From Candidatus Saccharimonadia bacterium (lineage in GTDB: Bacteria; Patescibacteriota; Saccharimonadia; UBA4664), in contig DATKIP010000093.1 of assembly GCA_035544015.1 (NCBI GenBank), positions 1,156 to 65,155 of the forward strand: 64,000 nt of DNA, written 5' to 3'. The notes beneath the pieces were generated by a model that worked only from the letters and a program-made list of their open reading frames with translations, ran no database searches and was not told the origin of the DNA. A program made the position numbers and the translations under genes. Numbering within the stretch: position 1 is the stretch's first letter; each line of letters begins with the position of its first letter. Positions 23,456-41,017 of the stretch are shown in pieces.

Positions 23456-23968
23456 ATGGCGCTGACTCCCACGCCAAGAACCCCCAAGTTTGAACTAGAG
23501 AGCTACATAACAGATGATTCATCACAGTACATGGAAACCTACTGCGTTAAGCCTGAAAACCTTAACGAAACCGAACTCACTTGGTACTGCTTCTTAGGCG
23601 ACATCCGCCTCAAAGACAACTTAGTTGATCTCTCCACGCGCCGGGAAGGGCTGCCGCTCTTGAACTTTGCCTTAGCCATGACTGAAATTGCAGAAGACCT
23701 TCGAAGTCATGCCAAAGCTACATATAACTTTACCGAGAACGCTGAGGAGATTAATTTTAGTAAAAACGGAAGCATGATCCAGATAACAGCAACTTACACG
23801 CATGGAACGGTTGAAGTTCCTCACCCGGAGTTCAGCAAGGCAGCAGATAAGTGTCTCTTAGATACTTACTCAGGCCTGACCGCGCGGTACCCAGGCCTAA
23901 AAAAGAACAATTTACTATCGCATATGTACAACCTAAAGCGCCTGAGCATCGAAGAGGAGAATTCGTAA
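23456..23968 (+). CDS. hypothetical protein encoded by an AT-rich insert between WxL-like paralogs
   Basis: 170 aa from the ATG overlapping the paralog-1 stop. Its composition is markedly lower in GC than its neighbours. No domain recognised. Confidence 0.4.
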   Translation: MALTPTPRTPKFELESYITDDSSQYMETYCVKPENLNETELTWYCFLGDIRLKDNLVDLSTRREGLPLLNFALAMTEIAEDLRSHAKATYNFTENAEEINFSKNGSMIQITATYTHGTVEVPHPEFSKAADKCLLDTYSGLTARYPGLKKNNLLSHMYNLKRLSIEEENS

Positions 23969-25289: not shown

Positions 25290-26414
25290 GTGAAAAGCCG
25301 CATCATCCGAGCGGCGGCCGCGTTGGGAGTACGCGGACCGCGAAATATCAAAGCTAAGCTGTCAAAATTTGCAGCTGTCCTGATTGCCCTCATGGGGCTG
25401 AGCCTCAACGCTGGCGTCGCCAACGCCGCGACGCTGTCGAGCGCCAAAGTCGCCTTGAGCGATCCACGCCCCAGCACCACCGCGGTCAACTACACGTTTA
25501 CCGGTTCCACAGTCACCACCTCGCTCATTAAATGCATCAAGCTGGTATTTGCCACCACCGCGACCGGTTCCACTGTGCCTACCAACTTCGATTCCAGCGT
25601 TGGCGCCGTGGCTCTCAACAATGCCGGTACCAACTACGTACCAACTCCAGCTTCGTGGAGCTTGAGCAAAGTCACCAATGGTACGCTCCTGCTCACCAAC
25701 GCCACCGGTGAAACCCCCGCCTCGGCCAGCGCTCGCACCATTTCGTACGACGGCATCACCAACTCGTCCGTCGCCGACACCGCCTACTATCTGCGGGTGA
25801 GCACCTTCAACAACATCGACTGCGCCACCAGCCCGGTGGATAACGGCTCAGTTCAGTTCATCAACACCAACGGTTCCACGCTCTCGCTCACCGTCGACAA
25901 CACCCTGAGCTTCACCGTCAACGCCGTAGCCGGCAGCCAGGGCTGCGACGGCACCACTACGACGCAGGCCTCCACCGCCACCACCATTCCCTTCGGCACC
26001 ATCACCTCCGGCGCCAACGGCATCGTCTGCCAAGACCTCACCGCCGCCACCAACGCCACCAATGGGTATACCATTTACGGCCGCTACACCGCCAAGCCCA
26101 CTAATGCCCTGAGCCAGACCATCGCCGACTTCACCGGCTCCAACACCACCCCGACCACCTTTAGCGCCGCCGGCACCGAGGCCTACGGCTACACCACCAA
26201 CGACTCCACGCTGGGCACCGGCTCGGCCAACCGCTTCACCAACGGCGGCCAAAAGTGGGCCGCCATGACAAGCACCAACGCTGAGCTCGCCTACGAAGCC
26301 GCCGGCATCACGAGCACCACCTACCGCATCGGGCACCAGGCGGGCGTGAGTCTCACGACCTTCCCAGGAACCTACACCACCACCGTCATCTACACTTGCA
26401 CTCCGATCTATTAG
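25290..26414 (+). CDS. secreted WxL-like surface protein, paralog 3
   Basis: WSL motif. C-terminus TYTTTVIYTCTPIY. Long blocks identical to paralogs 1 and 2 (for example SSNGVVCQDLQAATNA, AGTEAYGYT). Confidence 0.6.
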   Translation: MKSRIIRAAAALGVRGPRNIKAKLSKFAAVLIALMGLSLNAGVANAATLSSAKVALSDPRPSTTAVNYTFTGSTVTTSLIKCIKLVFATTATGSTVPTNFDSSVGAVALNNAGTNYVPTPASWSLSKVTNGTLLLTNATGETPASASARTISYDGITNSSVADTAYYLRVSTFNNIDCATSPVDNGSVQFINTNGSTLSLTVDNTLSFTVNAVAGSQGCDGTTTTQASTATTIPFGTITSGANGIVCQDLTAATNATNGYTIYGRYTAKPTNALSQTIADFTGSNTTPTTFSAAGTEAYGYTTNDSTLGTGSANRFTNGGQKWAAMTSTNAELAYEAAGITSTTYRIGHQAGVSLTTFPGTYTTTVIYTCTPIY

Positions 26415-26432: not shown

Positions 26433-27389
26433 ATGAAGGCTGTTTCCTTACTCCGCCGAACCCTCCTTACTCTCACCGCCGGCGCCGCAGGAGCAGCCTT
26501 CGCCGTGTCGGCACCGGCCCATGCCGCCACGTCGCAGAGCTACCAAATCTCACCGCCCACTGCCAATTACACCGGCAACAAGGGCGGCATCCAGAGCGGC
26601 ACCATCAAAGTCACCAACCTCACCGGCGCGCCGCTCTCGGTGCGCACTGGCAAAGAAAATTTTGTCGCTAAAGGCGAAGAGGGCGAGATCGAACTCGTTG
26701 ACGCCGCCGACCCGCTCTACTCGCTAGCGCCGTGGTTTTCGCTCAACGCCGCGCAGCTCGATATCCCCGCGCTGGGCACCAAAGAGCTCCATTACACTAT
26801 CGCCATCCCCACCGATGCCGAGCCGGGTGGCCGCTACGGCTCTATCGTGTTTAGCACCATTCCGCCCAAGCTCGCCAGCGGCGAATCCGGCGCCGCGGTG
26901 CAGCAGACGATCGCCGGCATCGTGTTTATGCGCATCGACGGCCAGGCCAACGAACAGCTCGAGGTAGCCTCATTTGGCGCCGAAAAGAGCTTTTACGACT
27001 ACGGGCCGGTCAAATTCCTCACTCGCATAAAAAATACCGGTACGGTTCATGAAAAAGCCACTGGCACCATCACCATCAAAAATATGCTTGGATTCAAAGT
27101 CGCCACCATTCCCCTCGACGAACACTTTGTGATCCCGGGTGCCATCCGCCGGCTGCACAATGACTGGCCTACCGGAGGTCAACACCCATTCCTGTTTGGC
27201 CGCTATACCGCCACGCTCGACGCCAAATACGGCAACGGCCAGACGCTTACCGCCTCCGCCAGCTTCACGGTGGTTCCATGGAAGCTTGTCGCTCTCATCG
27301 TGGTCGGATTGCTCGCAGTCATCGTGATCTTCTGGCGCGGCCGCCCGCGCTTCGCCCGCGCCTTCCGTATCCTAGCCGGCCGCGAATAG
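26433..27389 (+). CDS. DUF916-like cell-surface protein (signal peptide, C-terminal TM anchor with basic tail), predicted partner of WxL-like proteins
   Basis: 318 aa. Motifs SYQISPPTANYTG and GGRYGSIVFSTIPP are shared with the genes at 33257 and 51784. C-terminus WKLVALIVVGLLAVIVIFWRGRPR. TAAGG SD. Confidence 0.55.
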   Translation: MKAVSLLRRTLLTLTAGAAGAAFAVSAPAHAATSQSYQISPPTANYTGNKGGIQSGTIKVTNLTGAPLSVRTGKENFVAKGEEGEIELVDAADPLYSLAPWFSLNAAQLDIPALGTKELHYTIAIPTDAEPGGRYGSIVFSTIPPKLASGESGAAVQQTIAGIVFMRIDGQANEQLEVASFGAEKSFYDYGPVKFLTRIKNTGTVHEKATGTITIKNMLGFKVATIPLDEHFVIPGAIRRLHNDWPTGGQHPFLFGRYTATLDAKYGNGQTLTASASFTVVPWKLVALIVVGLLAVIVIFWRGRPRFARAFRILAGRE

Positions 27390-27431
27390 CACCGCCCTTG
27401 GCGCTTATATACTTAACGCACCAAGGGCGAT

Positions 27432-27935
27432 GTGATGGCGCGAGTTAAAAAGTTATTTTTACGCTATAGACGTATAATTGAGCATATGAAATCGCTTTAT
27501 AGGCTCTATAGGCTGACCCGCTATATTGATAATGAATCCCATCGCATAGATAAAAAATTCCCAGATGAGCTGAGGAATAACAACATACGGCGACGACCTA
27601 AAAAGAATGACATACTCAAGGGGTACAGCAGGAAGCATAAGCGCCTATCCTATGAAAAAATCGCTGATTTATTTGAGCAAGCCGAGAACGAGGGTTATAT
27701 CGAAGTCAATTCTTATGATTTAGTGAGGGTGGGTATCCCGCGAGGCACGGACTTTTTAGACTTTTTTATCATACCGTGGGGCTTGCTGAATCCTATGTTA
27801 GATAAATATGGCAAATTGGCATCTCTAATCATAGGCTTAGTAGGTGGGGTCGTAGTCACTATCGCTACCACTTTAGCTATTTGGACAGCGAAGTCATTAT
27901 TGAGTCTAGTTCAATATCTAATTAGACATCTCTAG
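27432..27935 (+). CDS. hypothetical protein, basic N-terminal region and C-terminal TM (AT-rich island)
   Basis: 167 aa in a low-GC region. Confidence 0.4.
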   Translation: MMARVKKLFLRYRRIIEHMKSLYRLYRLTRYIDNESHRIDKKFPDELRNNNIRRRPKKNDILKGYSRKHKRLSYEKIADLFEQAENEGYIEVNSYDLVRVGIPRGTDFLDFFIIPWGLLNPMLDKYGKLASLIIGLVGGVVVTIATTLAIWTAKSLLSLVQYLIRHL

Positions 27936-28008
27936 CTTAGAGCTCGTGTACTACTTTTTTTTCGGCTTCCGCTCCGGCTCCGTCTTTACGATCTTCTCCA
28001 TTGCCTTA

Positions 28009-28236
28009 TCAAATGACATCGGCAGGCTGAACGGCTGCTGGCGAGTCTGCTTCTCGGGCTGGGGCTTCGGCTGTTTCTCTGGCTTCATGATGTTTATTAT
28101 ACCTCGTTGTGTTTCTGATCGATTCTCGTTCCCGTCTTCTCTTGCGACTATGTTCACGCTCTACCACCACGAAAACTATAGGCAAGATGATGGGAAGTAG
28201 GATGATACCCAGAATGAGCTTTAATGCAGCTTTCAT
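28009..28236 (-). CDS. small membrane protein (AT-rich island)
   Basis: The start was chosen at the ATG preceded by AAGGAAG (reverse complement of about 28240-28247). A TM helix ALKLILGIILLPIILPIVFVVV. An overlapping alternative-frame ORF makes this uncertain. Confidence 0.35.
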   Translation of the reverse strand: MKAALKLILGIILLPIILPIVFVVVEREHSRKRRRERESIRNTTRYNKHHEARETAEAPAREADSPAAVQPADVI

Positions 28237-28687
28237 AACTTCCTTTGTGGTCCCCAAATAAAAAGGCGGCCACCACTTAGTGCAAGTGTTGAGCCGCACA
28301 ACGAGTTTTTGCGCCCGCCATCGGTGATGACCGCCTTAGTTAGCGCAAAAACCCACAAGACTTGTGGGAAAACTTGTTATACGGCTCAACGAAGTAATTA
28401 TGGCTGGTTATTGAGGCTCAGTAAAGCCCCAGAGAATAAATACCGAGTTCTGGACAACCCGCTCAAGCTCTGATATGCCTGTAGGTAAGGTTCGCTCCGA
28501 GATCACAATTGCGGCAACCGAATGTTAGTAGCTCGGGAGACCATGTCTCCACGACAGCATTTTGTTGCTACATATTTCCGGTGCGTTCCTACCACTTAAA
28601 CGGAGGAACCAGAAATGGGAATACTCGATTGGCCGCCTAGACGGCCCGAGCTTCCCCCGATAAAGACAACCTAGTCGGGGTATAGTA

Positions 28688-28713
28688 AAGGCCCCGTAAG
28701 GGGCCTTTACTTA
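28688..28713 (+). terminator. perfect 11-bp hairpin GTAAAGGCCCC-GTAA-GGGGCCTTTAC inside a roughly 580-nt non-coding stretch
   Basis: Read directly from the sequence; followed by TTACAAATTAATTG. Confidence 0.35.
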
Positions 28714-28818
28714 CAAATTAATTGCCGTATTGAGTACGGAAATTAATTGTACGCTACCGAGATCACGCCCTTATCATAGCGGGTTGTTTTGAGGTGCGCA
28801 AGAACCGTTATTTTGCGA

Positions 28819-29193
28819 TTAGCTCCTTCGCGGTGGTTGCGGAACTGCAAGAGGCTCACTAGCTTCAATGCGTGCAGCCTCCACCGCTTCTCTCCCAGCT
28901 TTCTCACTGCGTATCTTCTCCCTAGCAGCTTCTTCTTTGCGCACTTTCAGCTCAATGGTGTCACCAGCAGACGCGTAGTAGAGTATGGCCAAAAATCCAA
29001 AAATGAATCCCGACAATATACCTCCAGCAGTACTACGACCTCGCTGACCCGCCATGACACCACAAATGATGGCGAAGAATACACCTATGATAATAAGAAT
29101 ACCGAGCAGTCCAGCCAGGGCTGTTCCGGCGGCTGCACCGACTTCTGTGGCTGCTTGTGCAGTTGCTGGATCGAGAGTTGGGGTTGGGGTCAT
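28819..29193 (-). CDS. small membrane protein, hypothetical
   Basis: 124 aa. SD AAGGAG 6 nt before the ATG on the reverse strand. TM region GLLGILIIIGVFFAIICGV. Confidence 0.5.
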   Translation of the reverse strand: MTPTPTLDPATAQAATEVGAAAGTALAGLLGILIIIGVFFAIICGVMAGQRGRSTAGGILSGFIFGFLAILYYASAGDTIELKVRKEEAAREKIRSEKAGREAVEAARIEASEPLAVPQPPRRS

Positions 29194-29405
29194 GGGGATC
29201 TCCTTTAGATCGGAAACCGCCTCAATAAAATAAAGAGGCGACTGCTAGTTAGTAGAGGTGTTGACGCTCCACAACGGATTTGGACCCGCTTTCGCTAACA
29301 GCCGCCTGTATGAGTCCAAAAAATGCCACGGTGTGGCTAATTCCGATGTAGAGCGTCAACAAGGTAATCATACCTGATATAATAACTGCCTAAAAGGGAC
29401 CAGAT

Positions 29406-30347
29406 ATGCCTGACAATGAAGAGTTGCCTTTGCCCAGTGAGGGCGAAAGCAAAATCGACCTTTTCAAAGGCAAAGAAATCCGTAAAGTTTTACATGAAGG
29501 CGAGTGGTGGTTCGTTGTCGTAGATGTTATTGCTAGTCTCACTGGATCGATTGATCCAACTGGTTATGTAAAGGACATGCGGCGTCGAGATAAGGGTCTA
29601 GCAGAAGGGTGGGGGCAAATTGCCACCCCCCTTCGCATTGAAACCTCTAAAGGGCCACAAAACATCAATTGTGCCAATATTGAGGGGCTTTTCCGTATAA
29701 TGCAGTCCGTGCCCTCTCCAAAGGCAGAGCCATTCAAAAAATGGCTGGCAAAGTCTGCATTTGAACGGTTACAGGAAATCGACAATCCCGAGCTGGCAGT
29801 CCAACGTGCCATTGCTCTTTATCGGGCAAAGGGTTATCCCGATGGGTGGATCGATACTAGAATTAAAAATAAGGTCAGTCGAGAAATCCTGACTAAAGAA
29901 TGGTTTGAGCGCGGCGTACAGGATATGGATTACGCAATCTTAACAGATGCAATTTCCATTGAGACTTTCGGATTGAGCACGGCCAAGCACAAAGAGCTCA
30001 AAGGACTAAAAAGCCAGAGTCTCCGCGATAATATGACGCCAATTGAGCTAACCCTTACTACATTGGGTGAGCAATCCGCCACCGAGATAACCCGTGCTAA
30101 TAATGCTCAGGGGAAATGGCAAAATCTTACGGCGGCAAAAGCTGGTGGTAAAATTGCTGGAAACGCAAGAATGCAACTTGAGGAAGCAACAGGGCAAACG
30201 GTTGTATCTGATCAAAGCTATCTTACTGAACGTCAAAGACAAAATAATGCCCAAATTGAGGCTACAATTAATGATACTCTTAGCCGGATATTACGCCTTC
30301 CGGGGACTGACCCGCTTGAAGCAGGCGAGATTGGTACAGTCAGCTAG
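29406..30347 (+). CDS. Bro-N domain protein / DNA-damage-inducible protein D (DinD)-like
   Basis: The N-terminal region LFKGKEIRKVLHEGEWWFVVVDV resembles the Bro-N fold. Its stop overlaps the IS transposase stop, so it is probably 3'-truncated by the IS. Confidence 0.6.
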   Translation: MPDNEELPLPSEGESKIDLFKGKEIRKVLHEGEWWFVVVDVIASLTGSIDPTGYVKDMRRRDKGLAEGWGQIATPLRIETSKGPQNINCANIEGLFRIMQSVPSPKAEPFKKWLAKSAFERLQEIDNPELAVQRAIALYRAKGYPDGWIDTRIKNKVSREILTKEWFERGVQDMDYAILTDAISIETFGLSTAKHKELKGLKSQSLRDNMTPIELTLTTLGEQSATEITRANNAQGKWQNLTAAKAGGKIAGNARMQLEEATGQTVVSDQSYLTERQRQNNAQIEATINDTLSRILRLPGTDPLEAGEIGTVS

Positions 30348-31237
30348 CCAATAAGTCCCTTATACGTCAGCCGTTTCCCGCTCGCATATCCGAACCAGTT
30401 CTCGAATCGCTCACCATCCTTCATCTCGCGGGTATTGTACCGATAACCAAACTCCCCCGCGTACTTCGCCATATGCTTCCGGCTTACTCCAATATAGATG
30501 GCGTCGATACCAGACTTAAGATGGCTCCAGTACCCCTCAATTGTGTTCGTGTGCACCGTTCCGACCACGTATTCTTTGGTGTGATTTACCGAGTAATGCG
30601 GATAGCCCATAGCAGTGAGAGCGTGATACGCCTTGAGCTGGTCAGTCATAACCGTAGCCCTTGGGTCAATGTCTTTGATGATGTGAGGCAGAAGATAGGG
30701 AGCTGACCCCTTGGTCACAATATGAGTCTTGATGTGGCCTTTGCGCTCCACAAGTCCCATCACGGGTGTCTTGTTCGTAGACTTGTTACTGGCGTTCATG
30801 CCAACGCCCTTTTGATGGCCGCCAATATAGGTTTCATCTACTTCTACAATTCCATTTAGAAGTCTGTCACTTCCATCTAAAACCGCATGGCGGATACGCT
30901 GGAGCAGGAACCAGGCACTTTTCTGGGTAATGCCAAGATGTTTGCTCATCTGGATAGAGCTAACGCCTTTCTTGTGGGATGTAAGCAAATATATAGCCAA
31001 GAACCACTTCTGGAGGGGAAGACGAGACTCTTCAAAGATTGTGCCAATACGAGCCGAGAATTGTTTCATACAAGCCGTGCATTTGAATATCCGGCGAGAC
31101 TTGAGGGTGTAAACATCTAAGCAGCCGCAGTGGGGGCAAATAGGCTCACCATGCCAACGAGATTCAGCTAGATAGGCGTGGCAGGCATCTTCGTTGGGGA
31201 AGCGGTTGTAAAAGGCGATGAGATTGAGGGTTTCCAT
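30344..31237 (-). CDS. IS1595-family transposase (ISXO2-like, N-terminal zinc ribbon plus DDE)
   Basis: 297 aa. CPHCGC...CTAC zinc ribbon and the DDE region (...IVEVDETYIGG..., ...VMTDQLKAY..., ...NTIEGYWSHLK) are typical of IS1595. Confidence 0.85.
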   Translation of the reverse strand: METLNLIAFYNRFPNEDACHAYLAESRWHGEPICPHCGCLDVYTLKSRRIFKCTACMKQFSARIGTIFEESRLPLQKWFLAIYLLTSHKKGVSSIQMSKHLGITQKSAWFLLQRIRHAVLDGSDRLLNGIVEVDETYIGGHQKGVGMNASNKSTNKTPVMGLVERKGHIKTHIVTKGSAPYLLPHIIKDIDPRATVMTDQLKAYHALTAMGYPHYSVNHTKEYVVGTVHTNTIEGYWSHLKSGIDAIYIGVSRKHMAKYAGEFGYRYNTREMKDGERFENWFGYASGKRLTYKGLIG

Positions 31238-31285
31238 ACATCAAGCTTAGTGCAGGACATTGGTTGCGTCAAGTATATAAGCGCC
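30348..31285. mobile_element. IS1595-family insertion sequence (boundaries approximate)
   Basis: Imperfect terminal inverted repeats: CTTATACGTCAGCC near 30359 against GGTTGCGTCAAGTATATAAG near 31262. The element would be about 0.94 kb. Confidence 0.45.
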
Positions 31286-31361
31286 CCGCCCTTGCATGTT
31301 CGCAAAATGTTCGGTATATTGGCATCGCCAGCCAGTATATAGTAGACATCAAGGAGCGCCG

Positions 31362-31844
31362 ATGGCCACCACAGAATTTACCCTCGAAGATATTAGGCAA
31401 GTTGTCCGCGAGGAGTCCGACGCCTCGTTCGACCGCAAATTTGGCCCAGCGTTTGATGAAGCCTTTACGCGTTCCTTCGGGCCGGCGTTTGACGCGGCTT
31501 TCGCGCGGTCCTTCCAGCCAGCTTTTGACACGGCTTTTAGTGCGGCCTTCAAGCCCGCGTTTGATGCGGCTTTTGAACCGGCATTCAATGCGGCCTTCAA
31601 GCCGGCCTTCGACGGAGCCTTCGATCAGGCTTTTGAGCCGGCATTTATGGGAGTCTTCGAGCCCTTCGCCAATGCCATCAAAGAAGATTTCAATCGTATC
31701 GACGAGCGCTTCGATCATCTCGAAACCAAAGTCGAGTCCATCGCCCGCGACGTTGACGAGCTCAAGGCCGACATGAAGAGTATTAAGCGTATTGTCGGGC
31801 AACATTCCAAGGAAATTGTCGAGCTGCGCGCCCGCCTCGCGTAG
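31362..31844 (+). CDS. repeat-containing coiled-coil protein (nine tandem PAFD-x-AF heptads plus C-terminal coiled coil)
   Basis: FGPAFDEAFTRSFGPAFDAAFARSFQPAFDTAFSAAFKPAFDAAFEPAFNAAFKPAFDGAFDQAFEPAF... AAGGAG 5 nt before the ATG. Confidence 0.6.
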   Translation: MATTEFTLEDIRQVVREESDASFDRKFGPAFDEAFTRSFGPAFDAAFARSFQPAFDTAFSAAFKPAFDAAFEPAFNAAFKPAFDGAFDQAFEPAFMGVFEPFANAIKEDFNRIDERFDHLETKVESIARDVDELKADMKSIKRIVGQHSKEIVELRARLA

Positions 31845-31864
31845 TCCCCCGAGCCGCCGCCTGG

Positions 31865-31870
31865 TATAAT
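31865..31870 (+). promoter_or_regulatory. extended -10 (TGgTATAAT) for a leaderless transcript
   Basis: TGGTATAAT at about 31862-31870. The ATG at 31878 lies 7 nt after the hexamer. Confidence 0.4.
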
Positions 31871-31877
31871 TTTGCTA

Positions 31878-33260
31878 ATGCTAAAGCCTAAACGACACCT
31901 TGGCTCGATTGCAGCGGCCGCCCTGCTGCTGGCTCCCGCCGTCGCCATGCAACTCCTGCCGGCCGCCGCCTCGGCCGACCTGTTACAAAGCACGCACTTT
32001 CGGCTCGATCCGAATGTGGCCGACACCTTCGGCGGCGCCACCGGCTCGGCCTCATACCAGCTCACCGATGCCGGCGGTGAGGGAGCAGTGGGCTCGGGCG
32101 CTAGCCAGAGCTACAAACTCACCCAGGGTTATGTCAGCCAGCTGGCGCACTCGCTTTCGCTCTCGGTGCTGCCCGGCTCCACCTATGCCTACTGGCCGCT
32201 CGACACCGGCACCGGCACCGTCGCCTACGACGTCGGCACCACTGCCGACGACGGCACCCTCGTAGCCGCGCCGAGCTGGACGACCGGCATCGTGGGCCAA
32301 GGCGTCACGCTCAATGGCTCCAGTCAATATGTTTCTACCGCCACCTCGGTCGCCAATCCTACGACCTTCACGCTCGAAGTGTGGTTCAAATCCACGAGCT
32401 CCAACGGCGGCGAGCTCATGGGCCTGGGCAGCGCCCAAACCGGCTCCAGCGCCACCGTAGACCGCGTGCTGTACCTCGATAATGCTGGCCACATCGTGTT
32501 TGGCACCAAGCCGAGTGCCTTCAAAACCGTCGCCACCGCCTCTACCTACACCGACGGCTCGTGGCACCACGTGGCTGCCACGCTCGGCGCCACCGGGTTG
32601 CTGCTCTACGTGGATGGCCTGCGCCAGGGCACCGACGCCAGCACCACCACGGTGGCCAACTTCAGTGGCTACTGGCGCCTCGGCTTCGATAGCCTCGCCG
32701 GCTGGCCCTCGGCGCCCACGAGCAATTTCCTGGCCGGCACCATCGATGAAGCCCGCGTCTACACCCGCGCCCTGAGCGACGCCGAGATCAAAAACGACTA
32801 CACTGCCGGCGCCAACGCCCTCAAAGGCGCCTTCACGCTGCCCAACATCACCCCTGGCCAGTCCCAAACCTACTCAGCCGACGCGGTAGTGCGCACCGAC
32901 GCCGCCGGCTACGACCTTTACATGCAGGCGCTCACCCCACTCACCCACACCGACACCGTCACTACTATCCCCAATGTCTCCGGCACCATTGCCTCACCGG
33001 CCGCCTGGACCGAAGGCACCACGAAGGGCATTGGCTTCACGCTCACCGCCGGCACCTCCCTGGAAGGCAAATGGGGGACCAGTCCGGGTTACGCCTATGC
33101 CGGCCTGCCCAGCACCGCCACCGTTTACCACTCGCGCACCGGCCTCACCGCCGGTGTCCCCGAGCTCACCACTATCCAATACCGCGCCGACACCACCAGC
33201 AGCCAAAAGCAGGGCACCTACTCGGCTACCATTGTTTACACGGCGACCGTTCGGCCATGA
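31878..33260 (+). CDS. secreted LamG (concanavalin-A-like lectin) domain protein with WxL-like C-terminus
   Basis: Signal peptide. LamG-like core (...FTLEVWFKSTSSNGGELMGLG...GSWHHVAATLGATGLLLYVDG...ARVYTRALSDAEI). C-terminal tail QGTYSATIVYTATVRP. The track ORF starts at TTG 31872. Confidence 0.6.
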   Translation: MLKPKRHLGSIAAAALLLAPAVAMQLLPAAASADLLQSTHFRLDPNVADTFGGATGSASYQLTDAGGEGAVGSGASQSYKLTQGYVSQLAHSLSLSVLPGSTYAYWPLDTGTGTVAYDVGTTADDGTLVAAPSWTTGIVGQGVTLNGSSQYVSTATSVANPTTFTLEVWFKSTSSNGGELMGLGSAQTGSSATVDRVLYLDNAGHIVFGTKPSAFKTVATASTYTDGSWHHVAATLGATGLLLYVDGLRQGTDASTTTVANFSGYWRLGFDSLAGWPSAPTSNFLAGTIDEARVYTRALSDAEIKNDYTAGANALKGAFTLPNITPGQSQTYSADAVVRTDAAGYDLYMQALTPLTHTDTVTTIPNVSGTIASPAAWTEGTTKGIGFTLTAGTSLEGKWGTSPGYAYAGLPSTATVYHSRTGLTAGVPELTTIQYRADTTSSQKQGTYSATIVYTATVRP

Positions 33261-34141
33261 ATGCCCCATTGCGCCTGCTGCTGGTCAGCCTCACCCTGGC
33301 GACCGTAGGGCTCGCAATGCCCGCGCCGGCCCGCGCTGACGCCCCCGGTTTGCAAGCCAGCCCGCTCGAGTACATCGACACGCTCACCCCGGGCCATATC
33401 AAAAACGGTTACGTTGACGTTTCCAACCCCGGCGACGGATCCCTCGCCATCCGCACGAGCGTGCGCGGTTTTCGCCAAACCGGCACCGACGGCCGCCTCG
33501 AATTTTTCGACGACCCGGAGCTCATCGGCGGCATCAGCCTCGGCCTGAGCAGCTTTGAGCTAGGGCCCCGAGAAGCCGTGCGTGTGGTGTTTCACGTCGA
33601 CCCGTCCAAGCTCCCTGCCGGCGGTGTGTATGCCGCCCTCTTTTTCCAAACCGTCCCTCCGTCGCAATCTCCCAATAGCTCGTACGTAGCCGAAAGCGCC
33701 CGCATCGGCACCTTGCTCGAGCTCGTAAACGGCCCGGCCACGCCGCATCACGGCGCTGTCGCCAAACTCGATCTGCCGTTCCTGCAGCTCGGCCGCGGCC
33801 TCACCGGCACACTGCAGTATCAAAACACCGATCGTACGGCCCACCCCGTCGGCTACCGTCCGGCTCTCACGCTGAGCGTGCTGCCGTGGGCGGCTCACCC
33901 CAAGCTCGCCACCGGTCTCGTCCTGCCCAGCGCCACCCGTGAGTTCGCCATCGAGCGGCCAGGCTCATTTTTTGGCCTGTTACCCGTCACCATTACCGAC
34001 ACCGACACGCATCAAACCACCACGCGCTGGGTATTGGTGTGCACCGCGTGGTGCCAGTGGCTATTGCTGGTAATTGCCACCGCCCTCACGCTCGGAGTAG
34101 CGCGCAAAATCGGGCCCAGCCGGAGATCTACGTTAAAGTGA
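33257..34141 (+). CDS. DUF916-like cell-surface protein, second copy
   Basis: ATGA overlap with the upstream gene. Signal peptide. AGGVYAALFFQTVPP motif. C-terminal TM plus ARKIGPSRR tail. Confidence 0.55.
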   Translation: MNAPLRLLLVSLTLATVGLAMPAPARADAPGLQASPLEYIDTLTPGHIKNGYVDVSNPGDGSLAIRTSVRGFRQTGTDGRLEFFDDPELIGGISLGLSSFELGPREAVRVVFHVDPSKLPAGGVYAALFFQTVPPSQSPNSSYVAESARIGTLLELVNGPATPHHGAVAKLDLPFLQLGRGLTGTLQYQNTDRTAHPVGYRPALTLSVLPWAAHPKLATGLVLPSATREFAIERPGSFFGLLPVTITDTDTHQTTTRWVLVCTAWCQWLLLVIATALTLGVARKIGPSRRSTLK

Positions 34142-34416
34142 TCACAGCCGACCTCATCGTGATTCCGCCGCTGGCCTTGGTGGTGTGGGTGGCGTATGGT
34201 AGCCAAAAGCACATCCTGCGCCCCAGAGACAAACGTCTCGCCATCACCTGTGTCATGGTAGCGCTCGGCGTATGGTGGCTGACTGGCCTCGGTCACCTAG
34301 ATTGTGGGCGCACGTGCTCACCATCAGTCACAGGCGACGATCGGCTCTCGCTCGTCGTCAATCTCCTGATCTGCTTGCTGCCAATCGCCCTCTCCTATGC
34401 CCGTAAGCGCACATAA
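34138..34416 (+). CDS. small 3-TM membrane protein with basic tail (resembles the 6041-7518 family)
   Basis: GTGA overlap with the upstream gene; 92 aa; tail SYARKRT. Confidence 0.4.
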   Translation: MITADLIVIPPLALVVWVAYGSQKHILRPRDKRLAITCVMVALGVWWLTGLGHLDCGRTCSPSVTGDDRLSLVVNLLICLLPIALSYARKRT

Positions 34417-34499: not shown

Positions 34500-34916
34500 A
34501 TGCCAGAGTACGCCACCATCCAAGACGTTCGCACGATCATTGCCGAGGCCCTCGTGCCGGTAACGGAGCGCCTCAATAAAATAGACGGCCGGATCGATGA
34601 CGCGGACGGTCGGTTCGACAAAATAGATAACCGGTTCGACAAAATGGAGCTACGCCAAGACCGTATGCAAGTTAGCATTGACGATATCCAAAACAATTAC
34701 CGCGCCATACTAGTCCAAAACGAGGAGACCAACACAAAGCTCGATGCGATCCTCGAGTACGTTGCCGATGTCCCCGACCAAAACGCACGCATCGGCCGCC
34801 TCGAAGAAAACGCCGAACACGAAAAACTCAAGTCTGAGCTGGATCGCTCCCACATCGACGCCCTGCGCAGTGACATCGAGGCGCACCGGCGTCGCCCTCA
34901 CCCCACCAATTCATAA
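34500..34916 (+). CDS. coiled-coil protein with RFDK(I/M) repeats, related in architecture to 31362..31844
   Basis: Shared N-terminal pattern T(L/I)(E/Q)D(I/V)R and C-terminal heptad-like repeats DGRIDDADGRFDKIDNRFDKMELRQDRM. GGAGAG SD. Confidence 0.5.
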   Translation: MPEYATIQDVRTIIAEALVPVTERLNKIDGRIDDADGRFDKIDNRFDKMELRQDRMQVSIDDIQNNYRAILVQNEETNTKLDAILEYVADVPDQNARIGRLEENAEHEKLKSELDRSHIDALRSDIEAHRRRPHPTNS

Positions 34917-34990
34917 AAGGCTTACCGCAAGCCACAGTCTTGCCCAAACCATAAGCACGATGTTAAAATGCTTATGTAACAAAGGTTGTG

Positions 34991-37900
34991 ATGGAGTTAC
35001 GCCGCCGGCTTCGCATAGGGAGAATCATTCTCCTGAGCACAGCGGCTCAGCTCGTAGCGACTATTTTTGGCGTCTCCGCAATTTTGGCGCCCATGCCGGT
35101 ACAATCCGCCCAAACCGTTCCCTACATGGTGAACTTCCAGGGCCGCCTCACCGACAATTCCGGCAACATCTTGAGCGACGGCCTATACAACGTCAAATTT
35201 CGCCTCTGGACCCTGGCTTCGGGCGGTACCAACGCCTGGGAAGCCGACCGAGTGCGCGGCGCCTCCGACCACCGCATCCAGATCACAAATGGCCTCTTCA
35301 ACATCCAATTTGGCGACACTACGCTCGGCGATCCCGCGCTTGGCCCCACGCTGTTTAGCAGCGGCACCTACCCCCTGTATCTGGAGGTTGAGCTACCCAC
35401 TCCCGCCACCGCCACCTGCTCCACCAACGGCTGTGCGAGCTTCACCGAAGGCGCCATGACCCCGCGCCAGCCGCTCGCCTCCACGCCCTACGCCTTCAGC
35501 GCCGACACCCTCGACGGCCTCGATTCGGCCGCTTTTGGCCAGCTCTCGGCCAGTAACACCTTCACCAGCGCCAATATTTTTAGCCCCAGCTCCGGTGTCG
35601 CCATCACGATCAAACCCGCCGCCGCCACTCACTCGCTCGACGTCAAAGACTCAAGCAATGTAATCCAAGCCTACTTCGATGCCAGTGGTATTCTCAATGT
35701 TGGGCAAACCATTCAGGCCACCACCTCTACCGTCGATCTGGGGACGAGCGGCTCCACCTTCCGTACCGGGTACTTTGGCACGAGCGTCCAAACCCCCACG
35801 CTCAACGCCGCTACTTCCGGCGCCACCATCACCACCAACGCTGGCACCTTGCAGCGCACCTCCTCCGGCGGCCTCACTATCGATCTCAAAGACGCCGGCG
35901 CCACCACACTCACCGTCACCAACTCGGGCGGGGGAGTGGCAGGCATCAGTGCCACCGGCGGCCTCACCATCGGCACCGGCAGGGTCATCACTGTGGGCGC
36001 CACCGCCGGCACCGGCGTTACCTGCAGCTCTGGCCAAATCCTCGACGCCATCACCGTCGCCGGCGGTGTCGTCACTGGCGGCAGCTGCATCGCGGCCGGC
36101 GGCGGCGACAAATTCCTCGCCGCCTGGACCTCACAGCAGGCTACCACCGCCACCAACACCCAGACCACGGTGCAGTTCACCGGCGCCGCCAACTCCGCAC
36201 CGAGCTTCAATAATGGCACGCACGTGCTCACCCTGCCCTCGAATGCCTCCCGGCTACTCATAGAATCCAAGGCCGGCGGCGGTGGTGGTGGCTCAGTGGG
36301 CACCACGAGCGCCGTGAAGGCGGCCGGTGGTGGCGGCGAAGGCGGCTTGTCGCAGCTATTCGTCGGCGGCAGCCTGGCTGCCAACTATTATTTCAAAGTT
36401 GGCGGCGGCGGCGCGGGCGGCGCCTCAGGCGGCACCAACACCGGCACCACCGGGAGCTCCAGCTGCCTCGGCACCAACTCCGGCGACGCCTGCACCACGC
36501 CGGCGGTCAACGCGGTCGGCGGCACCGGCGGCACTGGGGTCACCACCGCCGTGCCCGCCACCGGCGGCGCGGGCGGAGCGGCCGGCTCGGGCGCCGGCGA
36601 CGTGAAGCTCTCCGGCGCGCCCGGCTGCACCAGCACCGCCACCGCCACCACGGCCATCGTCAGCGGCTGCGGTGGCGGCCAAGGCGGCGGCGCCAGCCAG
36701 GCCGGAGCCGCCGCTGCCGCAAACGGCATCGCCGGCACCTCGGGCGGCGGCGGGAGCGGCGGCATCCAGGGCACCGCCGCGGTCACCTCGCGCGCCGGCG
36801 GCAACGGCGGCGACGGCTACGTGAAGATCTCCGTCTACGTCACGGTCGCCGGCACCGGCAACCCCGCCACGCTCCAGTCCGCCTACGACAACGCCACCAA
36901 CCCCGAAATCACCCTCTCTGGCAACGGCCTCACCGTTCGCGACTCGTCCGGGGGGCTGGGCAGCAACCTGTTTGAGGTCCAGGACAACGCTGGCGCCACC
37001 ACCTATCTTGGCGTCACCACCTCCGGCATCACCACCAGCGGCACCGTCACCGCCAGCACTACCGGCACCATCAACGGCCTGTCCGTGAGCGCCGGCGCGC
37101 TTAGCGGCATCACCGGCTACACCCAAGCCTCGGGCACGTTTAGCCAAACCTACGCCACCGCCACCGCCGGCACCTCCGGCCAAGTTCTTGGCTTCTCCAA
37201 CACCAATGCCGGCGCGGGCGTCACCGTCCAGGGCACCAAAATCACCCCCAGCAACGCCACCCCCGGGTCCGGCACCAACACCCTCAACGTCCTCGACTTC
37301 GCCGCCGGCAACTCGCTTGGTGCCGGCGCGCTCACCAACGGCATCAACTTCGAATCCGCCACCGGCTACACCGCGTTCATCAACACCCCCACCTACAAGC
37401 TCGAATCCGACGGCGACCAAACCGCCGCCTTCACCGCCCTCGACGGCACCTCCACCGCCAACGGCGCCGGCACCAACGCCACCACCCTCATCCTCACTTC
37501 GGCCGCCAACTTCGACATCGGCAATTACGTGCAGGTCAACTCGGCCAACTGCGGCGGCACCGGCGTCAACCCGTGCTATGCCAAAATCACGGCCAAAGCC
37601 ACCAACACGCTCACCATCACCCCCGCGCTCACCTGGGCCAACGCCGCCGTCGTGAATGAATACCACCTGCCCGAAATCGGCGGCACCGACACCGCCCAAA
37701 CCCTCGCAGGCCGCTACGGCCGCGGCTACTTCATCGCCGGTGTCGCTACCGGCAACGGCACCACCTATTACAATGAGGACTCCATCGACTCCAGCCTCAC
37801 CTCGTTCAACCTGCTCACCTCGAACGTCACCACGCTCAATATCGGCACCGCCGCCACTACACTTGCCATTGGCTCGGCCAGCACCAGCGTCAGCGTTCCC

Positions 37901-39934
37901 GGTACGTTCACGGTTGCCGGCCAGTCCATCGTCAACGGTTCCGGCCAAATCAACGGAGCCCAAATCCAATCCGGCACCATCGCCAACGCCGCGCTCGCAA
38001 GCCCCAGCCTCACCGTCGCCGCCGGCACCGGGCTGAGCGGCGGCGGCAGCGTGGCGCTCGGTGCCGGCACTAGCCTCGCGGTGGTGTACGGCAGCTCGAG
38101 TACCTCGGCCGTCCGCGGCGACACCGCGCTCACGTGCCCGAGCGGCTCGGGCAACCTCTCGGGCGGCGGCACCGCCATTACGCTCGGTACCGGCGGCACG
38201 TGCGGCGCCATTACCATCTCAAATGCCCCCACCTTCACCACCAGCGTCACGAGCCCCACTATCAACGCTACCTCCGGTTTCCAGGCCAACGGCACCCCCG
38301 CGGTCGGCAGCACCTGCGGCGCCGGCGCGGCGATCACCGGCGCCACCTTCACCACCGGCATCCTCACGTCGGCCGGCACCTGCACCACCTTCCAGACCGC
38401 CGGCAGCTACCTCGTGCAAGCCCCGGCCTCTTCGGCCGCCAATACCGTCACCGCGCCCACCGGCGTGGTGGGCCTGAGCGTCAAAGGCACCACTGGCACC
38501 GCTGCGCACCTCCTAGATGTCTACAACTCGGCGGTCAGCCCCACCGTTCAATCGTTCTTCGATCTAAACGGCGCATTCAACACCGCCCAGGCCATCGTTG
38601 CCCCCACCAGCACCAACTCCATCAACGGCCTTGTCATCAACGCCGGTGCGCTCACCAGCGTCGGCAACATTACCGGCGCCGGCGCCGTCACGCTCCAGTC
38701 GGCTGCCGCCACAGCGCTCACCATCGATTCCGGCACCACCGGCGCCATCAACATCGGCACCGGCACCACGTCGGCCAAAACCATCACCATCGGCCCTAGC
38801 GCCACTAACACCAACGCCACCACCTACAACCTCGGCGTCAATACCGCCGGCACCCAAGACATCAACATCGGTTCCGCCGGCTCCGGTGACGCCGCCGCCG
38901 GCACTACCGTGAGCATCCAGGCCGGCACCACTGCCGGCACCGCGCTTATGCTCGGCACCAACGGCGCCGGCGGCATCACCATCGATTCCGGCACCACCGG
39001 CGCCATCAACATCGGCACCGGCGCCAATGCCAAAACACTCACGCTCGGCAACACCACCACCACGGCCGTCACCAACATCCTCGGCGGCGCCACCGGCGCT
39101 ATCAACATTGGTACCGTGGGCAGCGCGGCCACCGCCTCGGCGGTCCACGTCGCCGACACCAGCGGCAATGCCGTCCAAGGCGTCACCATCGGCTCCATCG
39201 GCAGCACCAGCAGCGCCACCACGCTCCAGGCCGGCGGCACGCTCACGCTCAAGGGCGCCAGCTCCTCCGCCACCGCCGTCCAGATCCAAACCGCCGCCGG
39301 CACCAACCTGCTCGTCTTCGACACCAGCGCCAGCCGCCTCACCGTCGGCGTGGTCGACGGTACCGGCACCTTGCTCGTCTTCGACTCCAAAAACACCACC
39401 GGCGACCCCACCGGCGTGGGCGGCGGCGAATACTACAACTCCAACAACAACAAATTCCGCTGTTTCCAAAACAGTGTTTGGCAAGATTGCATCTCCCACA
39501 CCGTCCTGCGGCTCGCCGCCGACGTCATCAACAACAACGCCACCGCCAACACCATGGCCGACGTCACCGGCCTCACGTGGAGCGTCACCTCCGGCACCCT
39601 CTACACCTTCAGCTGCACCATCTCGTACACCGCCGCTGCCACCACCACCGGGTCGAGGTGGTCCATCAACGGCCCGGCCACCCCAACCGCGCTGTTTTAC
39701 AAATCCCAATACTCACTCACTACAACCACCTACACCACCAACGACCCCGTAAACGCCTACGACAGCCCGGCCGCCTCCAGCGCCTCCTCGGCCGCCATCA
39801 CGGGCAACAACATCGCTACGGTCAGCGGGTTCATCCGCCCGTCCGCCAACGGCACCGTAGCACTGCGATTTGCCTCCGAGGTGTCGAGCTCGGCCATTAC
39901 CGCCAAAGCCGGCAGTACCTGCGAATACTGGTAG
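34991..39934 (+). CDS. giant Gly/Thr/Ala/Ser-rich secreted protein (1648 aa) with beta-helix-like internal repeats
   Basis: N-terminal signal-like segment. Repeated modules of roughly 80 aa (ITIDSGTTGAINIGTG occurs 3 times). C-terminal roughly 170-aa Cys-containing domain ending STCEYW. Confidence 0.65.
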   Translation: MELRRRLRIGRIILLSTAAQLVATIFGVSAILAPMPVQSAQTVPYMVNFQGRLTDNSGNILSDGLYNVKFRLWTLASGGTNAWEADRVRGASDHRIQITNGLFNIQFGDTTLGDPALGPTLFSSGTYPLYLEVELPTPATATCSTNGCASFTEGAMTPRQPLASTPYAFSADTLDGLDSAAFGQLSASNTFTSANIFSPSSGVAITIKPAAATHSLDVKDSSNVIQAYFDASGILNVGQTIQATTSTVDLGTSGSTFRTGYFGTSVQTPTLNAATSGATITTNAGTLQRTSSGGLTIDLKDAGATTLTVTNSGGGVAGISATGGLTIGTGRVITVGATAGTGVTCSSGQILDAITVAGGVVTGGSCIAAGGGDKFLAAWTSQQATTATNTQTTVQFTGAANSAPSFNNGTHVLTLPSNASRLLIESKAGGGGGGSVGTTSAVKAAGGGGEGGLSQLFVGGSLAANYYFKVGGGGAGGASGGTNTGTTGSSSCLGTNSGDACTTPAVNAVGGTGGTGVTTAVPATGGAGGAAGSGAGDVKLSGAPGCTSTATATTAIVSGCGGGQGGGASQAGAAAAANGIAGTSGGGGSGGIQGTAAVTSRAGGNGGDGYVKISVYVTVAGTGNPATLQSAYDNATNPEITLSGNGLTVRDSSGGLGSNLFEVQDNAGATTYLGVTTSGITTSGTVTASTTGTINGLSVSAGALSGITGYTQASGTFSQTYATATAGTSGQVLGFSNTNAGAGVTVQGTKITPSNATPGSGTNTLNVLDFAAGNSLGAGALTNGINFESATGYTAFINTPTYKLESDGDQTAAFTALDGTSTANGAGTNATTLILTSAANFDIGNYVQVNSANCGGTGVNPCYAKITAKATNTLTITPALTWANAAVVNEYHLPEIGGTDTAQTLAGRYGRGYFIAGVATGNGTTYYNEDSIDSSLTSFNLLTSNVTTLNIGTAATTLAIGSASTSVSVPGTFTVAGQSIVNGSGQINGAQIQSGTIANAALASPSLTVAAGTGLSGGGSVALGAGTSLAVVYGSSSTSAVRGDTALTCPSGSGNLSGGGTAITLGTGGTCGAITISNAPTFTTSVTSPTINATSGFQANGTPAVGSTCGAGAAITGATFTTGILTSAGTCTTFQTAGSYLVQAPASSAANTVTAPTGVVGLSVKGTTGTAAHLLDVYNSAVSPTVQSFFDLNGAFNTAQAIVAPTSTNSINGLVINAGALTSVGNITGAGAVTLQSAAATALTIDSGTTGAINIGTGTTSAKTITIGPSATNTNATTYNLGVNTAGTQDINIGSAGSGDAAAGTTVSIQAGTTAGTALMLGTNGAGGITIDSGTTGAINIGTGANAKTLTLGNTTTTAVTNILGGATGAINIGTVGSAATASAVHVADTSGNAVQGVTIGSIGSTSSATTLQAGGTLTLKGASSSATAVQIQTAAGTNLLVFDTSASRLTVGVVDGTGTLLVFDSKNTTGDPTGVGGGEYYNSNNNKFRCFQNSVWQDCISHTVLRLAADVINNNATANTMADVTGLTWSVTSGTLYTFSCTISYTAAATTTGSRWSINGPATPTALFYKSQYSLTTTTYTTNDPVNAYDSPAASSASSAAITGNNIATVSGFIRPSANGTVALRFASEVSSSAITAKAGSTCEYW

Positions 39935-39944: not shown

Positions 39945-40898
39945 TTAGCGCGCAGTCGATACCGAGCTATAGCTCGTTACCCAGTCGTAAATCTGCTTCG
40001 AGGTGTCGGCCATTTTTTGGCTTACCATTGCGTCATCGCCTTGCATCATCACGCACAGCAAATACGGCCGCTTCGGCACATAAAAAATACCACAATCACT
40101 ATGCACATTGGCCGGGTTAAATACCCCAATCTTGTGGGCTACCGTCACGTCCTTGGGGGTATATTTCGTGATCCGGCCAGTGAACGCAGTTTTTGACATC
40201 AGCGCCAAAATCGCCTGCGAACTATCGGGTTTGAGGTAGCACGACAAATACAAGCACTTCAGGATCGAAGAATACCCCCGCGAGCTAATCACCGCGTCGC
40301 CGGTCTTCGTGGTGTCGTGGTCGATGTCGAGCGCCGGGAGCGATTGCTCGTTGGCCGCCAGCATGCCCCGCGTCAGGCGGTTAATCAGCCGCGCGGCCGT
40401 ATTGTCGGATTGCGTGAGGGCCAAGTTGGCCGCCTCTTGCAGCGTCAGCGAGCCGCCCGCACCCTTTTTGTACAAATCGCCAAACGAGGCATCAAGGTCA
40501 TCGGCGGTTAGCTGCGCCGTGTCGCCCAGATGAATCCGGCCCAGCTCGACCGCGTGATACAGATCCATCACGAGCGGCAGCTTCACGAGCGACGCCGCGA
40601 TCAGCTCGCTTTCACCATTAATACGGATCGTCGTGCCCGTCGGCAAGTACTCAAAATAAAAACTAAACGGCTCCGTCTCGGTCCCAAATCGCTCGCGCAG
40701 CGCCGCCCGCAGCGAGGTGAAATTGATGATGGTGTCGTTGGGATTATCGGCAAACACCCGCCGCGCGAGCAGAGGATGCTGCGCCGATTCGCTCACCGTC
40801 TGAGCATTGTTCACCCCCACCATCGCCGCCCAGGCATACCCCAGGCCCAATATCGACAGCCCCACAACCCCCAGTAGCACATAACGTCGGTATTTCAT
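39945..40898 (-). CDS. serine hydrolase, class-A beta-lactamase / PBP-like
   Basis: Signal peptide. SxxK (ASLVK), SDN (TQSDNTAA) and K-x-G (AHKIG) motifs in the canonical order. The track ORF start is TTG 40931. Confidence 0.6.
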   Translation of the reverse strand: MKYRRYVLLGVVGLSILGLGYAWAAMVGVNNAQTVSESAQHPLLARRVFADNPNDTIINFTSLRAALRERFGTETEPFSFYFEYLPTGTTIRINGESELIAASLVKLPLVMDLYHAVELGRIHLGDTAQLTADDLDASFGDLYKKGAGGSLTLQEAANLALTQSDNTAARLINRLTRGMLAANEQSLPALDIDHDTTKTGDAVISSRGYSSILKCLYLSCYLKPDSSQAILALMSKTAFTGRITKYTPKDVTVAHKIGVFNPANVHSDCGIFYVPKRPYLLCVMMQGDDAMVSQKMADTSKQIYDWVTSYSSVSTAR

Positions 40899-41017
40899 GT
40901 CATCCCATGATAGCCCATTCGAGAGCCTCAATCCAGATGGTAGCCTTGAAAAACCCCGCCCTCTCGTGTATTATTTGCCAGTACCTTTTCCGATCAAGCA
41001 TAATGAAACTCGGTCGT

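Follow-up and report, generated by a model that had tools for sequence, protein, structure and literature searches.

A predicted LamG-bearing tip subunit and its translationally coupled chaperone in a divergent Pam pilus locus of a Saccharimonadia bacterium

The genes described here lie in a 64,000-nucleotide stretch of contig DATKIP010000093.1 from the Candidatus Saccharimonadia bacterium assembly GCA_035544015.1 (hereafter the window), where positions 31362 to 34416 hold four open reading frames (ORFs), A to D, all on the + strand (Table 1). Our comparative analysis indicates that B encodes a putative member of the PamT family, a predicted tip subunit of the pilus into which a LamG domain has been inserted, and that its neighbor C encodes a putative membrane-anchored chaperone of the PapD fold. 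We consider it fairly probable that the two proteins are the tip adhesin and the dedicated chaperone of a Pam pilus. Pam pili were described by cryo-electron microscopy (cryo-EM) as filaments of the saccharibacterium Ca. Mycosynbacter amalyticus (Troman et al, bioRxiv 10.64898/2026.03.03.709456). They comprise two-domain pilins that assemble by donor-strand exchange (PamA, PamB, and PamE), a single-domain predicted tip pilin (PamT), an RbmA-like terminator (PamR), and FimC/PapD-like chaperones with a C-terminal transmembrane (TM) helix (PamC and PamD) (10.64898/2026.03.03.709456). The NCBIfam models NF058578–NF058581, used throughout this analysis, derive from that preprint. The Pam system is thus already known, and the window locus is a divergent member of it.

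The LamG domain of B, first recognized from the sequence alone, is borne out by a match of residues 146–305 to the Pfam family Laminin_G_3 (PF13385; E=1.7e-24, 87.1 bits versus a cut-off of 27.6). The AlphaFold2 (AF2) model of B has an overall predicted local distance difference test score (pLDDT) of 82.7, with values above 90 in the LamG domain (residues ~100–300) and in the C-terminal pilin domain (CTD), and below 50 for residues 31–84. Foldseek comparison of this model with the Protein Data Bank (PDB) returned lectin-like jelly-rolls, including those of TeNT/BoNT Hc, PTX3, and domain 4 of AbnA, and no catalytic domain was found in B. The protein is 100% identical to one from a Ca. Saccharimonadia metagenome-assembled genome, and its public record is labeled “LamG domain-containing protein” and nothing more. 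Its orthologues fall into at least 120 clusters among the matches listed, with 46–78% identity. A scan of GTDB species genomes located relatives in 62 species, nearly all of them Saccharibacteria/Saccharimonadia, a distribution restricted to the candidate phyla radiation (CPR).

Comparison of these orthologues revealed that the LamG domain is an insertion into an older PamT-type protein of ~235 residues. Four species (loci L065, L067, L068, and L069) carry a LamG-less version of B of about this length, in which the N-terminal segment (N-segment) is joined directly to the CTD, and alignment places the insertion point between the strand SLSLSV and the motif FTLPNITPG (at residue ~318). The 237-residue LamG-less orthologue in L067 (L067:8974–9687) gives E=2.5e-10 with the PamT model NF058579 (241 positions), and the gene after it encodes a C orthologue, the two overlapping by 4 nucleotides as in the window. 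Among 50 LamG-bearing orthologues, 11 match this model as well (best E=1.5e-6); the matching parts of the B orthologues are the N-segment and the CTD. Mean identity within the B family is 69.6% in the N-segment, 66% in the CTD, and lowest, at 56%, in the LamG domain, as would be expected if a diversifying binding domain were mounted on a conserved scaffold for assembly. The orthologues in L062, L063, and L066 (655–667 residues) contain, in addition to LamG, a second insert of ~230 residues in a loop of the CTD, located after ...TDAPGY.L...NHD.... With two insertion sites in the family, the PamT-type scaffold has at least two insertion hot spots. The best-conserved region of B is residues 34–91, which are glycine-rich, include 9 invariant columns in 58, and feature two S-x-S-Y-(K/Q)-L-T repeats (SASYQLTD and SQSYKLTQGYV); yet their pLDDT is 35–42. 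This region may be an inter-subunit strand that becomes ordered only in a complex.

A motif scan confirmed that B shares its tail motif, G-x-Y-(S/T)-x-T-(V/I)-x-Y-T, with four other proteins in the window, namely the three major pilins and the small CTD-only pilin. The sequence-only reading had described this tail as WxL-like, a designation that we could not sustain. Residues 316–460 of B contain no W-x-L motif; the Pfam WxL family (PF13731) has no match at E<=1 in B, the major pilins, or the small pilin; and none of 41 diverse small relatives matches it at E<=10. Sequences and profiles of the CTD, the pilins, and the small pilins found nothing meaningful among the PDB sequences, the chains of 9i25 included; PamA/B are either not in this sequence set or too divergent. 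The CTD of B could instead be aligned with the window pilins (hhalign E=2.2e-4, probability 45%), collinearly up to the C-terminus, and with the 204-residue small pilin (BLASTP E=0.013; tblastn E=2e-4), and the three CTD classes share 8 invariant positions (alignment A4). By sequence, we regard the tail as a probable PamT-type version of the pilin domain that ends Pam subunits in the CPR, and not as a demonstrable WxL domain. In addition, 9 of 41 CTD-only small pilins (alignment A6) weakly match the Pfam family SCPU (PF05229; best E=0.0026), the family of Csu-type archaic chaperone-usher pilins.

The AF2 model of C (pLDDT 94.3) comprises two beta-sandwich domains, a helix at residues 265–285, and a basic tail. 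Its top Foldseek matches are the chaperones FimC, CsuC, CfaA, Caf1M, and PapD (E about 2e-9 and weaker), and the matches also include the Enterococcus faecium WxLIP structures 9i25_C and 9i1y (E about 1e-8). BLASTP identified C as a homologue of two further window proteins, chaperone 1 and chaperone 3 (E=2e-9 and 9e-16), the three being the proteins that the sequence-only reading had called “DUF916-like”. The GGxY motif ascribed to the three is present in each of them, but the pattern as originally written was too strict, the third copy having V in place of F. The DUF916 label itself finds no direct support in the window proteins: C, chaperone 1, and chaperone 3 have zero matches to the Pfam families PF06030 and PF11797 at E<=1, and neither does any of the 53 members of the C-orthologue alignment match these families. 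Pfam and NCBIfam scans of B, C, D, and their paralogues likewise detected no WxL, DUF916, or PapD, and a profile built from C orthologues only (A1) produced nothing but spurious TM-helix matches in the PDB.

At the superfamily level, however, the label holds. A library-wide search with the C-family profile retrieved 5,960 clusters at E<=1e-3, and a more diverse chaperone alignment (A5) was assembled from C, chaperones 1 and 3, and remote members found in this search. Against PDB sequences, profile A5 matches EfmWxLIP1 (9i25_C) at E=1.4e-7, with positions 44–257 aligned to 27–249 and thus across both domains, while chaperone-usher chaperones were not found in this set at E<=10. Moreover, 21 of the 45 A5 members match PF06030 (WxLIP_PGBD, formerly DUF916), with a best E of 8.7e-10. 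The sole member above the gathering score of this family (34.5 bits versus 27.3) is the protein P0318. The C-family profile finds P0318 at E=1.1e-34, and comparison of this protein with window chaperone 3 gives 29% identity (E=1e-25). The profile match to a WxLIP and the bridging position of P0318 support the “DUF916-like” label and, by transitive sequence homology, a relationship of the C family to WxLIP/DUF916 proteins at the superfamily level. What C has in common with the classical chaperones is only the fold, not the sequence. Some C orthologues carry long, unrelated cytoplasmic extensions past the TM helix (L001/L021, 544 residues; L012, 465; L016, 539; L007, 412), among them one PF08327 domain and one low-complexity tail, which hints at a lineage-specific coupling of the chaperone to cytoplasmic functions.

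Both gene overlaps reported earlier, ATGA between B and C and GTGA between C and D, are present in the sequence. The B/C overlap, with the start of C in frame at the B stop minus 3, is kept in 56 of 60 loci, including loci with as little as ~30% identity, which supports translational coupling of the two genes. Directly upstream of B lies an extended −10-like box, in the arrangement TGGTATAAT-N6-ATG. Loci L001, L006, L007, L008, and L009 have a corresponding arrangement, TATAAT-N7-ATG, and a TATAAT-like box (TGnTATAAT-like) is found 5–9 nt 5′ of the B start in 31 of 57 loci, with equivalent sites in L001 and L006–L069, versus a background of 1.55% per start-like triplet. This consensus match suggests a conserved internal promoter that would give rise to a leaderless or near-leaderless B–C transcript, and B–C probably has its own promoter directly at the B start codon. 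A terminator and promoter scan of 27.3–35.1 kb was not enriched over shuffled sequences and missed the box, because it is not accompanied by a −35 box. An own promoter would explain why insertions are tolerated at the junction between chaperone 1 and B, where we found A and a transposon in the window and a peptidase gene in L073.

Within the window, B and C form the far end of a single pam locus and are separated from chaperone 1 by A and the transposon. The order PamR-like protein, two to three pilins, chaperone 1, B, C, and fibre protein recurs in L001, L006–L009, L072, and L073. In most of the 62 GTDB species loci, and in no fewer than nine related contigs for which genes had been called, B–C comes directly after the pilins and chaperone 1; the spacing between chaperone 1 and B is 14–34 nt in related loci that are free of insertions at this point. 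The transposon of the window, a member of the IS1595 family, is flanked by a perfect 8-bp target duplication, CCGCCCTT (27392–27399 and 31286–31293), and has a GC content of 0.40–0.49 versus 0.61–0.69 in the flanking pam genes. Synteny and these boundaries rule out that B–C is an independent, duplicated module, and the proposed “second module” dissolves into one locus in which A and the transposon cause the gap. The more general claim of a dedicated surface system of several components, with B and C among them, is supported.

The remaining components of the locus are similarly divergent. The PamR-like protein scores below the equivalog cut-off of 300 of its model and is considered a divergent homologue of PamR. 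The first two major pilins match the Pam_pilin_C model NF058581 (E~3e-5) below its cut-off of 55; a scan of the third pilin with this model gave no match, and the linker of this pilin contains ...TLSLTVDNTLSFTVNAV.... The pair of small pilin and chaperone 3 lies 18 kb off in the window and between C and the fibre gene in L006. Downstream of C, 47 of the 62 loci contain the gene for the giant fibre-like protein. Its N-terminal 300 residues have 58–74% identity to counterparts located directly 3′ of C in L001, L002, and L006–L009, and it is probably the “tail fibre-like” neighbor described in the Pam preprint. The L067 homologue of this protein weakly matches NF053851 (Bdello_MAT_N; E=1.4e-5), a model for the mosaic adhesive trimer fibres of Bdellovibrio.

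Based on these features, the following sequence of events can be envisaged. B and C, both with N-terminal signal sequences, would be exported by the Sec pathway, their synthesis being coupled by the 4-nucleotide start/stop overlap. C would then act on the incomplete CTD of B through strand complementation, probably with the last strand of its own domain 1, which carries the conserved GGxYAAxFFxTxPP motif (expected GGVYAALFFQTV); we infer this role from the position of the strand, which is that of the PapD G1 strand, and from the published WxLIP–WxL complex. Filament formation would begin with B: chaperone 1 would deliver the first major pilin, whose linker strand would take the place of C in the groove of B. 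The LamG domain would thereby remain at the distal tip, where it could bind a host-cell surface glycan, and termination and anchoring of the fibre would fall to the PamR-like protein. Filament start, displacement of C, tip placement, and PamR-like anchoring all follow the preprint's model of PamT.

Several observations weigh against this account. B itself has zero matches to NF058579 or NF058581, and the PamT-model scores of its orthologues lie far under the curated cut-off (40 versus 240 bits). LamG dominated the Foldseek output for the full B model, which consisted of LamG/jelly-roll folds only and gave no reading of the CTD fold against PamA/B, chaperone-usher pilins, or WxL. The N-segment is predicted to be disordered and, if it acts as a donor strand, B is not necessarily terminal. 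Moreover, we infer strand complementation by C, the tip position, and donor-strand exchange throughout. The WxLIP homology of C, by profile A5 and the PF06030 matches, makes a static two-component surface lectin a serious, if rather unlikely, alternative, of the kind proposed for Firmicute WxL clusters: C would be an end-state membrane anchor that holds B non-covalently by strand insertion, and B would never be polymerized. The undetected sequence relationship to classical chaperone-usher chaperones fits such an arrangement, as does the architecture of signal peptide, two Ig-like domains, and TM helix that C shares with WxLIPs (PMC10599100). A stable complex of a WxLIP with a long WxL protein is present in the PDB, and the grammar of WxL systems (a small subunit, a large one with N-terminal binding domains, and a WxLIP) is mirrored by the small-pilin/chaperone-3 and B/C pairs; the apparent own promoter of B–C also counts in its favor. 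However, B–C sits in a locus whose paralogous subunits polymerize in M. amalyticus, as visualized by cryo-EM in the preprint, and the PamT model matched by LamG-less B orthologues describes a protein that the preprint places at the filament tip. In addition, a membrane-held adhesin would reach little past the wall or S-layer.

We give little credence to a third arrangement, in which B is an internal or adaptor subunit whose residues 34–99 donate one or more strands to the small 204-residue pilin, another B, or the fibre protein, so that LamG decorates the shaft or links the fibre to the pilus. The strong conservation of the N-segment combined with its low pLDDT is typical of a strand ordered in a complex, its repeats are beta-strand-like, and SLSLSV resembles a pilin linker; the haloarchaeal LamG tip subunit TafC is a predicted N-terminal strand donor (PMC11821415), and the frequent presence of the fibre gene downstream of C provides a possible partner. 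PamT, however, has no linker strand according to the preprint, and the placement of the N-segment against the pilin linkers by MAFFT is ambiguous. That B is a free secreted protein that binds or degrades glycans, unrelated to pili and only incidentally adjacent to C, seems very improbable to us. While Laminin_G_3 is common in secreted glycoside hydrolases and toxins, and the public label of B goes no further than its LamG domain, such a protein would hardly account for the widely kept B/C overlap, the conserved place of B inside pam loci, a pilin-type CTD and N-segment that are better conserved than LamG, the existence of LamG-less orthologues, or the lack of a detected catalytic domain.

The tip-adhesin account can be compared with several known systems. 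Like the Pam pilus, the window locus belongs to Saccharimonadia and combines a PamR homologue, two-domain pilins with a putative Pam CTD, TM-anchored chaperones of the PapD fold, and a giant “tail-fibre-like” protein as a conserved neighbor. It differs in that B carries a LamG domain of ~215 residues in the PamT scaffold, whereas the preprint reports no LamG, lectin, or adhesin; in that the gene for a dedicated chaperone is translationally coupled to B, with what seems to be an internal promoter; and in that all window proteins fall well under the curated NCBIfam cut-offs. FimH and PapG are lectin-plus-pilin-domain tip subunits. The same combination of a lectin with an incomplete pilin domain, encoded adjacent to a chaperone gene, is seen in chaperone-usher tip adhesins (FimH–FimC, PapG–PapD, CfaE–CfaA, and CsuE–CsuC). 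In contrast to these pili, the window system involves no outer membrane, and its chaperone is membrane-anchored, not periplasmic; no usher family was detected by Pfam and NCBIfam among the proteins scanned at 20–41 kb and the pair at 51.8–53.3 kb. Furthermore, the LamG jelly-roll of B sits after an N-terminal segment, whereas FimH-type lectins are N-terminal.

A parallel for the lectin part comes from archaea. TafC is a laminin-G-bearing tip subunit of haloarchaeal Tat-fimbriae (PMC11821415), which assemble by strand donation (PMC12337348). Like B, it joins LamG to a pilin-like domain and comes from an organism that lacks an outer membrane; a filament built by strand donation is predicted for B as well. 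The TafC laminin-G is the best NCBIfam match for the LamG domain of B, and 32 of 50 B orthologues match the TafC model over their LamG part (best E=3.8e-15). B itself reaches 18 bits against a cut-off of 410 for this model (NF052521), with the LamG part alone aligned (B 216–310 to profile positions 271–362). Moreover, in TafC the pilin-like domain precedes LamG, the reverse of the order in B, and TafC is an archaeal protein exported by the Tat pathway.

Firmicute WxL clusters encode a small WxL protein, a large WxL protein, and a WxLIP that consists of PF06030 (DUF916), PF11797 (DUF3324), and a TM helix (PMC10599100; PDB 9i1y, 9i25). Their likeness to the window locus lies in the CTD-only small subunit, the large subunit with N-terminal binding domains and a CTD, and the membrane-anchored Ig-Ig-TM partner, and insertion of a partner strand into the subunit is predicted or solved for WxLIP–WxL. 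The tail of B, on the other hand, carries neither W-x-L nor a Pfam WxL domain, C itself falls short of PF06030, and descriptions of WxL proteins have them bound to peptidoglycan at the cell surface and not forming filaments. We tentatively put forward, as a possibility to which we would give less than even credit, that the Pam pilus and the Firmicute WxL/WxLIP systems are two branches of an ancient monoderm system, in which a membrane-anchored chaperone of the PapD fold complements an incomplete beta-sandwich subunit; as part of the same tentative proposal, B would be the CPR counterpart of the large WxL and the 204-residue pilin that of the small WxL. If so, WxL proteins could polymerize like Pam pilins, or the chaperone could serve to present the LamG-PamT protein. 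For the chaperone half, homology is supported by the profile comparisons, while for the subunit half it is hypothetical. The preprint draws no link between PamC/D and WxLIP/DUF916, and a Pam–WxL connection is likewise absent from the literature searched.

The other two genes of the interval had been counted as members of the module together with B and C, which the comparative data contradict. A looks cytoplasmic, with no signal peptide, and its description as a coiled-coil protein applies to its last ~55 residues only (with weak DUF7310/XhlA matches), whereas residues ~25–100 consist of PAFD-type tandem repeats with 24/36-nt periods. Homologues of A occur in 2 of the 62 GTDB species loci, L012 (49% identity, directly 5′ of B) and L023, and none is present in L001, L006–L009, L072, or L073; A thus appears to be an accessory gene at the chaperone-1/B junction and not a conserved part of the system. 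D is indeed a 92-residue protein with three hydrophobic stretches, as judged by eye. Its search among 5.8 billion clusters returned only D itself, tblastn of related loci gave zero matches, and a weak match to DUF2568 lies below the cut-off, so that this orphan either codes for a small membrane protein specific to its lineage or is spurious. A second small coiled-coil-like ORF without a signal peptide (34500–34916) brackets B–C–D together with A; a short coiled-coil-like segment, F(N/D)(R/K)ID-x-RFD-x-E, is common to the two (BLASTP E=3e-4), as are weak XhlA/DUF7310 matches, and neither ORF is kept in related pam loci. A, D, and the ORF at 34500–34916 were ruled out as system components, being unconserved in related loci.

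Two further ORFs were noted next to pam genes. A 170-residue ORF without a signal peptide (23456–23968; GC content 0.47) lies between pilin genes 1 and 2; it has zero homologues in the related loci examined and may be another small insertion. Directly 3′ of the fibre gene, a class-A beta-lactamase-family protein is encoded on the − strand (39945–40931; PF13354, E=6e-36), and L003 has a beta-lactamase-family homologue in a similar position.

Table 1. Coordinates of the pam locus and associated features in the window (aa, amino acid residues of the respective protein)
Feature	Position	Strand	Details
A	31362–31844	+	160 aa; AAGGAG ribosome-binding site 6 nt 5′ of ATG
−10-like box, extended	31863–31871	+	TGGTATAAT; ends 6 nt before the ATG of B
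B	ATG 31878 (or TTG 31872) to 33260	+	460 aa; C-terminal end ...GTYSATIVYTATVRP
B signal peptide	aa 1–33	+	cleavage ASA/DL, inferred by eye
B conserved N-segment	aa 34–91 (31977–32150)	+	
B strand SLSLSV	aa 93–99	+	
B LamG domain	aa ~101–315 (32178–32822)	+	~215 aa
B putative Pam-type CTD	aa 316–460 (32823–33257)	+	
C	33257–34141	+	294 aa; ATG inside ccATGAat, 4-nt overlap with the TGA stop of B
C signal peptide	aa 1–27		
C beta-sandwich domains	aa 33–133 and 149–263		
C conserved motif	33620–33661		GGVYAALFFQTVPP; last strand of domain 1 (E122–133 in model)
C TM helix	aa 265–285 (34049–34111)		followed by basic tail
C model versus known folds			figures: CfaA 13.1; SafB 12.9; EfmWxLIP1 12.7; FimC 12.4; PapD 12.0
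D	34138–34416	+	92 aa; GTG start inside aaGTGAtc, 4-nt overlap with C stop
PamR-like terminator/anchor	20296–22284	+	NF058578 PamR, E=1.7e-59, 201 bits, model positions 29–291 of 297
Major pilins 1, 2, and 3	22342–23454, 24055–25191, 25290–26414	+	~375 aa; tail motif
Chaperone 1	26433–27389	+	GGxY motif GGRYGSIVFSTIPP; C-terminal hydrophobic helix
IS1595-family transposon	27400–31285		3,886 bp; 21-nt terminal inverted repeats, 95% complementary
Transposon cargo	27435–27935 and 29406–30347		166-aa ORF (27435–27935), small ORFs, Bro-N protein (29406–30347)
Transposase	30344–31237	−	Pfam/NCBIfam matches, IS1595
Giant secreted fibre-like protein	34988–39934	+	1648 aa; Gly/Thr/Ala-rich; no Pfam match
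Chaperone 3	51784–52728	−	314 aa; motif GGHYAAVFVETIPP; C-terminal hydrophobic helix
Small CTD-only pilin	52682–53296	−	204 aa; NF058581 E=3.2e-6, below cut-off; variant tail

Relative to the Pam preprint and the literature searched, three aspects of this locus appear to be new: the predicted family of LamG-inserted PamT proteins with a coupled chaperone, the modular insertion sites in the PamT scaffold, and the apparent sequence-level link between Pam chaperones and Firmicute WxLIP/DUF916 proteins. Our search for literature on LamG, laminin G, or concanavalin in connection with Saccharibacteria found nothing relevant, and a Southlakia transposon-sequencing paper contains no mention of this locus type under the terms searched.

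How Pam filaments recognize host cells was left open by the 2026 work. With a variable lectin on a predicted tip scaffold in 62 GTDB species, accompanied by a coupled chaperone, the B family is a testable candidate for host recognition by Saccharibacteria. At the same time, sequence comparison connects the Pam chaperones with DUF916/WxLIP proteins from enterococci, lactobacilli, and Listeria. Should the subunits prove to be related as well, current views of how WxL surface proteins work would have to be revised, and chaperone-assisted strand complementation would be an old trait of bacteria without an outer membrane.

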